Below, piece after piece: positions 47,635-51,433 of a stretch of DNA of 54,616 bases (the first letter of the stretch is position 1; each line of letters begins with the position of its first letter). The DNA lies in contig JBFMCO010000041.1 of assembly GCA_040754495.1 (NCBI GenBank), positions 1-54,616 of the forward strand. Direction: 5' to 3'. The notes beneath the pieces were generated by a model. That model searched no databases and had not been told where the DNA came from. It saw nothing but the letters and a program-made list of their open reading frames with translations. Made by a program: the position numbers and the translations under genes. The DNA is from Candidatus Micrarchaeota archaeon. GTDB lineage: Archaea; Micrarchaeota; Micrarchaeia; Anstonellales; Bilamarchaeaceae.

Positions 47635-47697
47635 AAATTGCTCACCGCCGAGATTTGAGCTTAAATCGCATATATCGTTTATAAAACTTGGCCGGCG

Positions 47698-48795
47698 TCA
47701 TCTGGCATCGGAGACCTTTTCGAATAGCTCGAGCGGATTCTGGTAAATAATCCTGCCGTCGATGAGCCTGTACGTCTCGAAATGCAGGTGGGGCGTTATC
47801 GTCCCGGTCATCCCGACCGTGCCTATCCTCTGGCCCCTCGCGATATGCTGGCCTTCCGAGACCTCGATGGAATTCAGGTGGACGAACCGCATGCGCAGGC
47901 CGTTTTCGCACCTGACTTCAAGGGTGTTCCCTCCCCTCTCCGACCGGGAGATTGTGGCGACCTCGCCCTCAAGCGGGGCTATTATGCCGGTCCCTATGGG
48001 TGCGTGTATGTCCAGGGCGTAATGCCTGTATCCACCTGCCCTCACCTCGCCATAGCTTTTCGGGAGGAAGCCGAGCGGCACCTTCTGGAGGCCGCGCTTC
48101 ACATAGACGTCTTCCGCCCGCTCAGCCCTCCGGTTCGCCTCCGGCACAGGGAAGGCGATGGCAGGCATCCCCTCCCTCCTTGGCACTGCGAGCATCCCAT
48201 CGGGCCGCCCCTGCCGGGCAGGCGCTCCCGTGGCATAGGAAAAAAGCGCGAAAAGGGCCGCGCCATCCACGCCACCTTCGGTGCCGATGGGCCGCCCTGA
48301 GAAATCAGTGAAGCCGGCGGCGTTAAGGGTAGCGCGCAGCTCCCCGGCATCTGCGAACCCGGAATACCTCAAGACAGCCCGGAGGGCATCAAGATACGCC
48401 ATGTCTTCCTGATTCACCCTCAGGATGGGGTAAATAGCAGCCCTCAGGCCCTCGAGGGCATGTGAGTTCGCTCCCCGCGCGCCGTTTAGCTCTTCCCTGA
48501 ACTCGCCCTCCTGCAGAAACCTGAAAAGCGCGCATACCGTGTCCGCCCCGAGCGTCCCGGTGGACTCGATTTCCCTTCCGCTGAAGCTCCGTATCCCCCT
48601 CTGCCGGAGAAACGTCTGGAGACCATTGACGTCGGAAACGCCCAGGACCGGGCCGGCTATCCGCATGACCTGGGGCGCCGCTCCGGATAGATTCCCAAGC
48701 CCGTTCTGCAGAAGCAGGAGCTCCATGTACTGGGCGAAGGGCAGGACGTCGCCCGGCCTCTCCTCCCTCCTCTGCGCCTGTGCCGGGCCTGTCAT
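47698..48795 (-). CDS. M23 (LytM-type) endopeptidase with two peptidoglycan-binding-like repeats
   Basis: C-terminal HYALD...HLN...TPHLHFE gives the HxxxD/HxH zinc motifs. Upstream repeats are FL..RG...FSG..I...G.LG..T..ALF and LNAAGF.DFSG..I...G.VD...LFALF. Start trimmed to ATG 48795. Confidence 0.88.
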   Translation of the reverse strand: MTGPAQAQRREERPGDVLPFAQYMELLLLQNGLGNLSGAAPQVMRIAGPVLGVSDVNGLQTFLRQRGIRSFSGREIESTGTLGADTVCALFRFLQEGEFREELNGARGANSHALEGLRAAIYPILRVNQEDMAYLDALRAVLRYSGFADAGELRATLNAAGFTDFSGRPIGTEGGVDGAALFALFSYATGAPARQGRPDGMLAVPRREGMPAIAFPVPEANRRAERAEDVYVKRGLQKVPLGFLPKSYGEVRAGGYRHYALDIHAPIGTGIIAPLEGEVATISRSERGGNTLEVRCENGLRMRFVHLNSIEVSEGQHIARGQRIGTVGMTGTITPHLHFETYRLIDGRIIYQNPLELFEKVSDAR

Positions 48796-49145
48796 GGCAT
48801 CATCAATCCTTATTAGGCATTTTAAACCATCCGGCTGCGACGCCTGGATCCGGTTGAAGCGCGGACAGCGCTCTGCCCGCAGCGGGTTAAAAACCGGCGA
48901 ACGAAGGTAGGGGGTTCCCGAGTGGGAGGGTGACGTCCGCCGGTTTAGTGGATACTGGTCAGCATGAGGCTCTCCGGGGCCCGAACCCCGCGACCAATCC
49001 AAAAAAGTGGAATCGCCGCTTCAGGCCATGCTTCCCGCATCTCACGTATGGGACGCTGCTCCGGCGTATAAAAACGTTTTCCCCGGTTTCCGGAAATTAT
49101 TACACGAATTCGCCGGATTAGCTGCTCAAAACTGGAAAATTTCTG

Positions 49146-50012
49146 TCAATGCTTCCTGCGGAGGAGCTCGCCCAGCTGCCCTATCGTTTCCCGGAGCGGG
49201 CCGGCAAGGTCAGAGCCGAGGACGGATACGAGCTGGTCCAGGAATCCTATGGCATCGGCAGCCGAGCCGCTCCTGAAGGGAGCATCGAAATGGGCAAGCT
49301 CCTTCCCGAGGAAAACCCTGAGGTCGCCGTCGATATCCGACGTGTCCATTTTGAAGAATGCCTTCCGCACTTCCCGCTCGCCAAAGCCCTGCGCGAGGAC
49401 GTTCACGAGCAGGTTGGGGTAGAATATCGGGGCGAAGCTCATCCTGATGGCCGCTTCGTCATACTCCAGGATGTGCGGGACCTCGTCGCTCTCATGCCCT
49501 GCAGCCTGCAGGGAATACCGGCAGAACCCTTCCTCGAATGCGCCCGGGAGGCCCTTCACGGCCGCGTGCAGATGCTCGTGCATCGTCGTGGCAAGCTCCC
49601 TGCCGGTTCCGGACCTGATGATTATCATCGGCGGCTTGTTGTCGAACTTCATCGTCTGGCCGAGGATTTCCGAGGTAGGGTCCTCGCTGAATCTTATGAA
49701 CGGGAGGAAGGCGACGGGATTGTCAAGCACCGGCTGGAGGCTTCCGGCATGCTCCGGAAATGTCTCCAGGAGCTTCATTCTCGACATAATGGTGAGATTC
49801 ACGAAACCTTCGGGGTCATCAAGCGACGTCACGGCCCCGCTTTTCTGCCCGTGCCTGAGGAGCCGGGAATAGAAGATGCCCTTGAAAACCCGGAACCGGA
49901 TGAGGGAGTCCACCAGCTTCTCGTCCGGAGGCTTGTTCGAGAGCAGATTCGTCACGAATTCGCAATAGCTGGCCTCGTACATCCCGTACCATTCCTTGAG
50001 CTCCTTGGCCAT
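49146..50012 (-). CDS. HExxH zincin-like metalloprotease candidate
   Basis: TMHEHLHA followed by AFEEGF, a gluzincin-like third ligand. Start ATG 50012. Confidence 0.6.
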   Translation of the reverse strand: MAKELKEWYGMYEASYCEFVTNLLSNKPPDEKLVDSLIRFRVFKGIFYSRLLRHGQKSGAVTSLDDPEGFVNLTIMSRMKLLETFPEHAGSLQPVLDNPVAFLPFIRFSEDPTSEILGQTMKFDNKPPMIIIRSGTGRELATTMHEHLHAAVKGLPGAFEEGFCRYSLQAAGHESDEVPHILEYDEAAIRMSFAPIFYPNLLVNVLAQGFGEREVRKAFFKMDTSDIDGDLRVFLGKELAHFDAPFRSGSAADAIGFLDQLVSVLGSDLAGPLRETIGQLGELLRRKH

Positions 50013-50190
50013 CGGAGCGTGCCTTGCCTGTATCCTGCATTGGGGGCCTGTTGTTTGCAGAGCGGGCTGCATCTTACACCTCTCTCGTGGATAGCGTCCG
50101 CGCCTGCTTTATAGAGATATTCTCTTTTTTTGAAGAATTTTTACAAACATGATACATATAGATAAAAACTGTTTTAGAAATATTCTATGC

Positions 50191-50625: not shown

Positions 50626-50650
50626 AAACCTGCCATGATAGTACTTGCTT

Positions 50651-51433
50651 ATGGCGGAGATCCAGCTTAATTCCTGCTGCGGCGGCATCTTCTTTTTCGG
50701 CTTCGGCCTCCTTCTCATCTACGGGGCAGTGCAGAGGTACATGCTTGCCCAGAAGATACGCAACACGCCGACATCGAAAGTCCGCTCGGCCGCGGTCGGG
50801 CTCGCCGAGCTTTTCGGCAAGGCCTCATGCAGGGCGGACATGCAGAGCCCGGTATCGAAGGCAAAGTGCGCCTACTACCGCCTGACCGGCGAATACTACT
50901 ACCAGACGCGGAAAAGCAGCGGCTGGAAGCAGTTCTTCAGGCGCGAGTCGTCCCAGCAGTTCTTCCTTGAAGACGACACCGGGAAGATGCTGGTCGAGCC
51001 CGCAGGCGCCGAGATAGACATCCCGAGCGATTTCCAGTGCACGGGCCATCTCAGCGAGGGCGGCATCCTCGGCATGTTCAAGGCCACGCTTCTGGACAAG
51101 AAGGTCATGGATTTCCTCGCCTCGGATGATGCTGCGAAGAACTCTTTCAACCAGTATTCCAGCCGCAACCTGCGCGTGACGGAGTACTACATCGCGGACG
51201 GCGACCCGCTCTACGTGCTTGGCACCGCCACGCCGCTTTCCGGCTCATCCAGCGCGGTCGCGCACGAGAACCTCATCATGAAGAAGGGTGCGGACCAGCT
51301 CATGTACGTCAGCGACTCCCACGAGAAGAAGGCGCTAGAGAAGGTGCAGGGCGGCATATGGTGGATGCTCGGCCTCGGCTTCGTGCTCGGCGCGATAGGT
51401 TTATTTGTCCTGCTTACGACTTTCGGGGTGTGA
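50651..51433 (+). CDS. GIDE-domain membrane protein (E3 ubiquitin ligase MUL1/SP1 intermembrane-domain-like, no RING)
   Basis: TM, TPTSKVRS, FFLEDDTGK.LV, EYYI..GD.LYVLG, YVSDSHE and a terminal TM. Confidence 0.8.
   Translation: MAEIQLNSCCGGIFFFGFGLLLIYGAVQRYMLAQKIRNTPTSKVRSAAVGLAELFGKASCRADMQSPVSKAKCAYYRLTGEYYYQTRKSSGWKQFFRRESSQQFFLEDDTGKMLVEPAGAEIDIPSDFQCTGHLSEGGILGMFKATLLDKKVMDFLASDDAAKNSFNQYSSRNLRVTEYYIADGDPLYVLGTATPLSGSSSAVAHENLIMKKGADQLMYVSDSHEKKALEKVQGGIWWMLGLGFVLGAIGLFVLLTTFGV

Follow-up and report, generated by a model that had tools for sequence, protein, structure and literature searches.

A leaderless modular M23 murein endopeptidase candidate in a Micrarchaeota archaeon

The gene at positions 47,698 to 48,795 on the reverse strand of the window (the whole stretch of DNA analysed here, 54,616 nt) encodes a small protein, P0001, which is probably a murein endopeptidase that docks on bacterial walls, cuts them and is released by a non-classical route. 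The first-pass annotation of this DNA had pictured a weapon or feeding enzyme; this picture is something that we infer, and so are what P0001 cuts, how it is exported and what ecological role it plays. The idea of an archaeal murein hydrolase is already published (Strock 2025; Castelle 2021; Vazquez-Campos 2021). Useful additions made here are a hidden PG_binding_1 module, three exchangeable catalytic heads on that module and the consistent absence of a leader.

Start site and promoter of the M23 gene

The gene and its putative promoter were placed as follows.

47698..48795, reverse strand: whole M23 gene (P0001), an open frame of 365 codons plus stop; candidate leaderless modular M23 murein endopeptidase
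48820..48826, reverse strand: TATA-like box TTTAAAA, about 28 nt 5′ of the ATG at 48795, read directly from the sequence; putative promoter

All full-length homologues begin at a methionine equivalent to the ATG at 48795. Because of this shared methionine, and because of the TATA-like box upstream, we take this ATG as the start, giving a protein of 365 amino acids. The short distance between TTTAAAA and the ATG implies an mRNA that would be leaderless or nearly so. A longer reading from TTG 49002 (434 aa) was rejected, since the methionine of the homologues corresponds to ATG 48795 and the TATA-like box would fall inside the extension. On the other side of the gene, 63 nt separate the M23 stop codon from the ppsA start (47635-47697), and the coding strand of this spacer carries TATA-like boxes rich in A and T (TTTATAAA, ATATAT). 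Probably ppsA has a promoter of its own, and the M23 gene is probably monocistronic.

The catalytic domain

The C-terminal part of P0001 is an M23 domain with the following features.

47719..48084, reverse strand: M23 catalytic domain, residues ~238-359 (Pfam core, residues 257-343, at 47767-48027)
48010..48024, reverse strand: HxxxD zinc-ligand motif (H258, D262), invariant in the family and aligned to the HxxxD of 2gu1
47878..47880, reverse strand: catalytic His306 ('HLN'), from the family alignment and the 2gu1 alignment
47782..47790, reverse strand: HxH motif (H336 catalytic, H338 zinc ligand), from the family alignment and the 2gu1 alignment

Residues 257-343 matched Pfam Peptidase_M23 (PF01551) with an E value of 7.8e-22 and 77.7 bits (cut-off 28.7), and the protein has the beta-sheet core fold of the M23 peptidases. 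Zinc motifs that looked intact at first reading, HYALD, HLN and PHLH, proved to be H258..D262, H306 and H336/H338, and these five residues are invariant in all ten family members compared. The HxxxD, H and HxH positions line up with the active site of the solved Vibrio zinc peptidase 2gu1. Because the zinc and catalytic residues are both invariant and aligned to this active site, the M23 domain looks catalytically competent. A degenerate LytM-type activator (EnvC, NlpD, DipM) was ruled out, as all five zinc and catalytic residues are kept in P0001; when aligned with P0001 and 2gu1, the inactive activator DipM deviates at HxxxD and at the first HxH position. P0001 also differs from the bacterial M23 endopeptidases (V. 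cholerae 2gu1/ShyA, E. coli MepM, S. aureus LytM, lysostaphin) in having another accessory module and no periplasmic targeting. All NCBIfam equivalogs of that kind (ShyA, MepM and others) scored far under their cut-offs on P0001, with at most 54 bits against cut-offs of 341-700.

A divergent module of PG_binding_1 type

The N-terminal half of the protein comprises a helical module, joined to the catalytic domain by a linker.

48211..48795, reverse strand: N-terminal all-helical module, residues 1-195, with both repeats inside (AlphaFold2 model of residues 1-200; homologous modules in L035, L030, L045 and L154)
48484..48648, reverse strand: repeat 1, residues ~50-104, PG_binding_1-like by internal alignment and hhalign; [DT]G-x-L-x-x-x-T as remnant of DGxFGxxT
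48220..48366, reverse strand: repeat 2, residues ~144-192, PG_binding_1-like by internal alignment and hhalign, more degenerate than repeat 1
48166..48213, reverse strand: flexible linker, residues ~195-210, with pLDDT <50 in the full-length model

The first-pass annotation had described two repeats resembling PG_binding_1 ahead of the M23 domain and had proposed AlphaFold as a check. The description was borne out, although Pfam itself is silent: neither Pfam nor NCBIfam matched the N-terminus of P0001, PF01471 was absent from ten of ten close members even at E<=10, and no Pfam PG_binding_1 match was found in the host genome, which is 80% complete. The two repeats are 33% identical over 42 residues (E 5e-6), indicating a true internal duplication, and the two-repeat pattern is well conserved across the family. 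For residues 1-200, AlphaFold2 predicted one compact helical domain (pLDDT 86.6, pTM 0.83), in which each repeat consists of a helix, a long loop with a short hairpin and a second helix. Foldseek and VIA-align searches with this model gave noise-level helical matches alone, and no fold assignment was based on them.

To compare the repeats with the canonical domain, hhalign was used to align a profile of 16 family repeats with one built from 15 canonical PG_binding_1 domains of Micrarchaeota genomes. The probability was 78.5, with a P value of 1.7e-5 and a score of 26.8; the best score among 400 column shuffles was 15.2. The profile of the P0001 family also matched a 403-aa protein from G262 (L035), with an E value of 2.7e-17 and a probability of 98.9 across 324 aligned columns. 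The G262 protein scores 29.4 bits on PF01471 (cut-off 23), keeps the canonical DGxFGxxT and carries M23 at its C-terminus. A further relative, L154 of G374, reached 23.8 bits against the same cut-off of 23. In the ESM Atlas, residues 1-200 had PG_binding_1/PG_binding_3 clusters as the top three feature rows and as eight of the ten structure rows, which we use as a lead only. Because the hhalign score lies beyond the shuffles, the G262 intermediate passes PF01471 and the ESM Atlas neighbours point the same way, the repeats are, as judged from sequence, divergent relatives of PG_binding_1. In the window's genus, repeat 1 retains only [DT]G-x-L-x-x-x-T of the DGxFGxxT motif and repeat 2 has lost still more of it; the motif is preceded by a five-residue insertion. 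Since the motif is degenerate, especially in repeat 2, wall binding by it may be weakened or retargeted.

Relatives and exchange of catalytic heads

The full architecture of P0001 was found in only some seven clusters among ~15 billion proteins, and the named hosts are all Micrarchaeota ('Ca. Micrarchaeia archaeon STL-MIC1', 'Ca. Bilamarchaeum sp.'). A profile search with the N-terminal module alone matched 8 of 401 Micrarchaeota genomes, one of the matches being marginal (E 4.1e-4). Module-carrying genomes comprise three in the window's genus, the host genome included, and four of the six genomes of one other Micrarchaeota family. In the latter, the same module is fused to an M23 head in G262, to an NlpC/P60 head in G195 and G077, and to an Amidase_2 (N-acetylmuramoyl-L-alanine amidase) head in G374 (E 3.3e-34). 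The genes with heads other than M23 lie as follows.

L030:961-2115, reverse strand, and L045:578-1729, forward strand: module genes with NlpC/P60 head (G195, G077), convergent to a W/Y tRNA-synthetase gene
L154:928-2178, reverse strand: module gene with Amidase_2 head (G374), convergent to a W/Y tRNA-synthetase gene

In these three genomes the gene is each time convergent to the same class I W/Y tRNA-synthetase gene. The catalytic head has therefore been swapped in place at one conserved locus among these relatives. As the module is fused to M23, NlpC/P60 and Amidase_2 alike, murein is the most economical common substrate, and the presence of three classical murein-hydrolase heads on one module is the strongest argument here for murein as the shared substrate. 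The proteins of the module family are small (350-405 aa), soluble by sequence and all without a leader. Many of the nearest matches outside the family are long (551-1,970 aa) and have between two and four successive M23 domains (P0126, P0138, P0143, P0168, P0176, P0177 and P0189).

M23 domains of any architecture were present in 70 of 401 Micrarchaeota genomes, belonging to 48 of 155 genera, in open frames of 146 to 2,907 aa; canonical PG_binding_1 was present in 13 of 201. Full-length matches to P0001 occurred in only two genomes (G006 and G021) of a first draw of 24 from the same genus, and a later draw added G183. The G183 orthologue occupies the same site (gene order dph2, phoU, ppsA, M23, Lrp, GIDE, LemA), and its M23 gene is 43% identical to that of the window, as against 71-84% for the flanking genes. 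In G010, G004 and G022, ppsA directly adjoins GIDE/LemA and the M23 gene is absent between them. A second subclade (G021, G006 and a G183 paralogue) adjoins Elp3 and HerA. Patchy presence at a syntenic site, fast divergence, exchange of heads and the occurrence of three heads are marks of an interaction or conflict gene.

A search for the donor by phylogeny, suggested at first pass, was run on 104 M23 domains (125 columns). The P0001 family formed a single clade (SH-aLRT 90) with two subclades, and Micrarchaeota M23 domains were scattered among bacterial ones. The family had no supported sister group in this tree, and no donor could be named. Sphingomonadales were not accepted as donors: the contig scan used a single peptide pattern and was biased towards this group.

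Absence of a leader and proposed function

No signal peptide had been seen behind the ATG at 48795, and closer inspection agrees: the start methionine is shared, no hydrophobic segment follows it, and the AlphaFold2 model places the first helix (residues 14-32) within the folded domain. The same holds throughout the family. On inspection by hand, none of the 13 module-carrying proteins has a hydrophobic N-terminal or transmembrane segment or a pilin-like leader, and the highest Kyte-Doolittle 19-residue window among them is 1.31. In this respect P0001 is typical of published archaeal peptidoglycan hydrolase homologues, only 32% of which have a signal peptide (PMC12352652). The family-wide lack of a leader sharpens an open question in the literature, namely how signal-less archaeal wall hydrolases reach bacteria.

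In our proposal, P0001 would be a soluble murein hydrolase with two parts. Its N-terminal module, with the two degenerate PG_binding_1-type repeats, would dock the protein on peptidoglycan; the flexible linker would connect this docking module to the M23 part, a zinc-dependent endopeptidase that would cut peptide cross-links. Searches of the host genome (80% complete) found no Mur ligase, SLT, NlpC/P60, Amidase_2, AnmK or GH3, and the lack of a Mur ligase argues against a role in remodelling a murein wall of the archaeon's own. In an archaeon without murein synthesis the substrate would thus most likely be bacterial walls, whether those of living cells nearby or those in debris. As there is no Sec, Tat or pilin-type leader, this substrate would be reached by a non-classical route, for example cell lysis, vesicles or a contact structure.

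In a more specific form of this proposal, which we think rather unlikely, the leaderless module proteins would be effectors that pass from the cytoplasm into bacterial cells or the periplasm, either by way of a contact structure or in a programmed release. No contractile-injection sheath gene was found in the host genome at its 80% completeness. If the effector reading were true, Micrarchaeota so far assumed to be free-living or to have archaea as their only partners would attach to or prey on bacteria, and the route, which would need no signal peptide, would be one not yet described in archaea.

The missing leader would also suit an enzyme that stays in the cytoplasm and trims imported, cross-linked muropeptides of bacterial debris for their amino acids and amino sugars, the repeats binding soluble fragments. 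Every family member is without a leader, and the Amidase_2 and NlpC/P60 heads of the relatives belong to folds that include cytoplasmic murein-recycling enzymes such as AmpD. However, AnmK, GH3 (NagZ-type) and Amidase_2 are among the domains not found in the host genome, which is only 80% complete, and PG_binding_1 modules are typical of enzymes that work on polymeric walls. The patchy distribution and fast divergence described above are also more what one would expect of an interaction gene than of a metabolic gene. Scavenging of this kind is therefore an unlikely role for P0001.

We consider it a little less probable still that the target is something other than murein, with the degenerate repeats retargeted to the envelope of an archaeal partner or of the host itself (pseudomurein, S-layer or another protein). 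Cultivated Micrarchaeota have archaea as partners, certain M23 enzymes cleave proteins other than murein, and the PG_binding_1 motif is degenerate in the window's clade. Against this, sister proteins join the same module to an N-acetylmuramoyl-L-alanine amidase head, which cuts a murein-specific bond, and the less degenerate relatives exceed the PG_binding_1 cut-off. Moreover, the known pseudomurein-binding domains and pseudomurein endoisopeptidases fall in other families. A murein endopeptidase acting on bacterial walls thus remains the reading that we prefer.

Comparison with known archaeal hydrolases

The closest described counterpart is Woldo (UniProt J2ZZK6) from Halogranum salarium B-1. 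This zoocin-A-like peptidoglycan hydrolase of an archaeon has M23 and two PG_binding_1 domains and kills bacteria (PMC12352652). Like Woldo, P0001 is an archaeal protein that combines M23 with two tandem domains of PG_binding_1 type; both are patchy among close relatives and have both domain types from bacteria. The order of domains is reversed: in Woldo the N-terminal part is M23 and the C-terminal part is formed by the binding domains. In addition, Woldo has a Tat signal and was detected in a supernatant with bactericidal activity, whereas P0001 is without a leader, and its repeats, unlike those of Woldo, lie below Pfam detection.

Small wall-less archaea with domains that cut bacterial walls have been described before among the DPANN, and P0001 resembles them in this respect. 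Woese- and Pacearchaeota encode giant murein-like lytic transglycosylase proteins (PMC8204110), and an M23B enzyme occurs in the Micrarchaeota MAG 'Ca. Norongarragalina' (PMC8561730). A role as tools against bacteria has been discussed for murein-cutting proteins of DPANN (PMC8204110, PMC10936187), which were read as means to attach to, attack or feed on bacterial cells (PMC8204110, PMC8561730). In contrast to these proteins, for which an extracellular location is predicted and which in many cases are very large, members of the P0001 family are soluble, leaderless proteins of 350-405 aa with a conserved two-repeat module of their own.

Measured against the features used by Strock et al. (2025) to define archaeal modular hydrolases, P0001 has the catalytic peptidoglycan hydrolase domain and lacks a wall-binding domain recognised by Pfam. 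A Pfam-based screen would thus miss the window's clade, while the relatives L035 and L154 would pass it. Because the binding module of this clade lies below the PF01471 threshold, Pfam-based censuses under-count archaeal murein hydrolases. With P0001, the short list of such enzymes gains a family specific to Micrarchaeota, and the small size and solubility of the protein make it an easy candidate for expression and sacculus assays.

Genomic context and origin of the gene

The host genome comprises 1.63 Mb in 72 contigs, and its completeness is put at 80% and its contamination at 1.5%; synteny and the named relatives place it among the Micrarchaeota of the Anstonellales type, a group described in the literature as DPANN with a fuller metabolism (PMC8561730). 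At its end the window contains the 3′ portion of a 23S rRNA of archaeal type, and the flanks of the M23 gene encode diphthamide synthase, an AbrB-PhoU regulator, PEP synthase, Lrp/AsnC, GIDE and LemA. The contig is syntenic with other Micrarchaeota genomes of the same genus, and the neighbouring proteins are 71-86% identical to theirs. The M23 gene thus has an archaeal chromosomal location.

This location bears on the further possibility that P0001 derives from a captured gene of phage-endolysin type which now has hardly any function or none, or that an integrated element encodes it. In its layout P0001 matches the modular endolysins of phages that infect Gram-negative bacteria (for example phiKZ gp144): an N-terminal PG_binding_1 module, a C-terminal catalytic domain, no signal peptide and interchangeable heads. 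Several of the ESM Atlas structure rows were also viral. However, the frame is open, with catalytic residues invariant over ten diverged members, and its GC content (0.63) and GC3 (0.76) are near the values of the adjoining genes. Modular phage endolysins are encoded in a virus or provirus beside lysis genes; P0001, unlike them, has no virus context or holin and sits among archaeal housekeeping genes, without integrase or virus genes in its flanks. Searches of IMG/VR and GenBank phages found no relatives of P0001. Such an origin without present function, or within an element, is therefore very unlikely.

The first-pass annotation had held that its reading would fail if the contig binned with bacteria; both domains of P0001 are bacterial in type, but the archaeal 23S rRNA, diphthamide synthase and other archaeal genes on the same contig, the synteny with several Micrarchaeota genomes and the named homologues, all from Micrarchaeota, already refute bacterial contamination or mis-binning, which is almost certainly not the explanation.

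Three neighbouring or related genes deserve mention. Directly upstream of the M23 gene and on the same strand, an ORF of 308 aa at 49146-50072 (reverse strand) contains an HExxH motif (HEHLH); it has no Pfam match, and its nearest ESM Atlas neighbours are 'Peptidase MA-like' clusters at 0.93. We rejected this ORF as a conserved partner because neither the syntenic G183 locus, where a GIDE paralogue occupies its place, nor any of the other homologue loci contains it. The GIDE-domain membrane protein itself (50645-51433, forward strand; L137, L143, L146), encoded upstream of LemA, varies from a single copy to three tandem paralogues among the genomes of the genus. Elsewhere in the host genome, contig C34 encodes a second M23-like protein (L002:487-1212, reverse strand), a stand-alone protein of 241 aa with intact HNGID, HL and HVH motifs. 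It scored 25.4 bits with Pfam, slightly under the cut-off, and is without a binding module or obvious leader; its gene adjoins a putative adenylosuccinate-lyase gene, identified by reading rather than by a profile scan.
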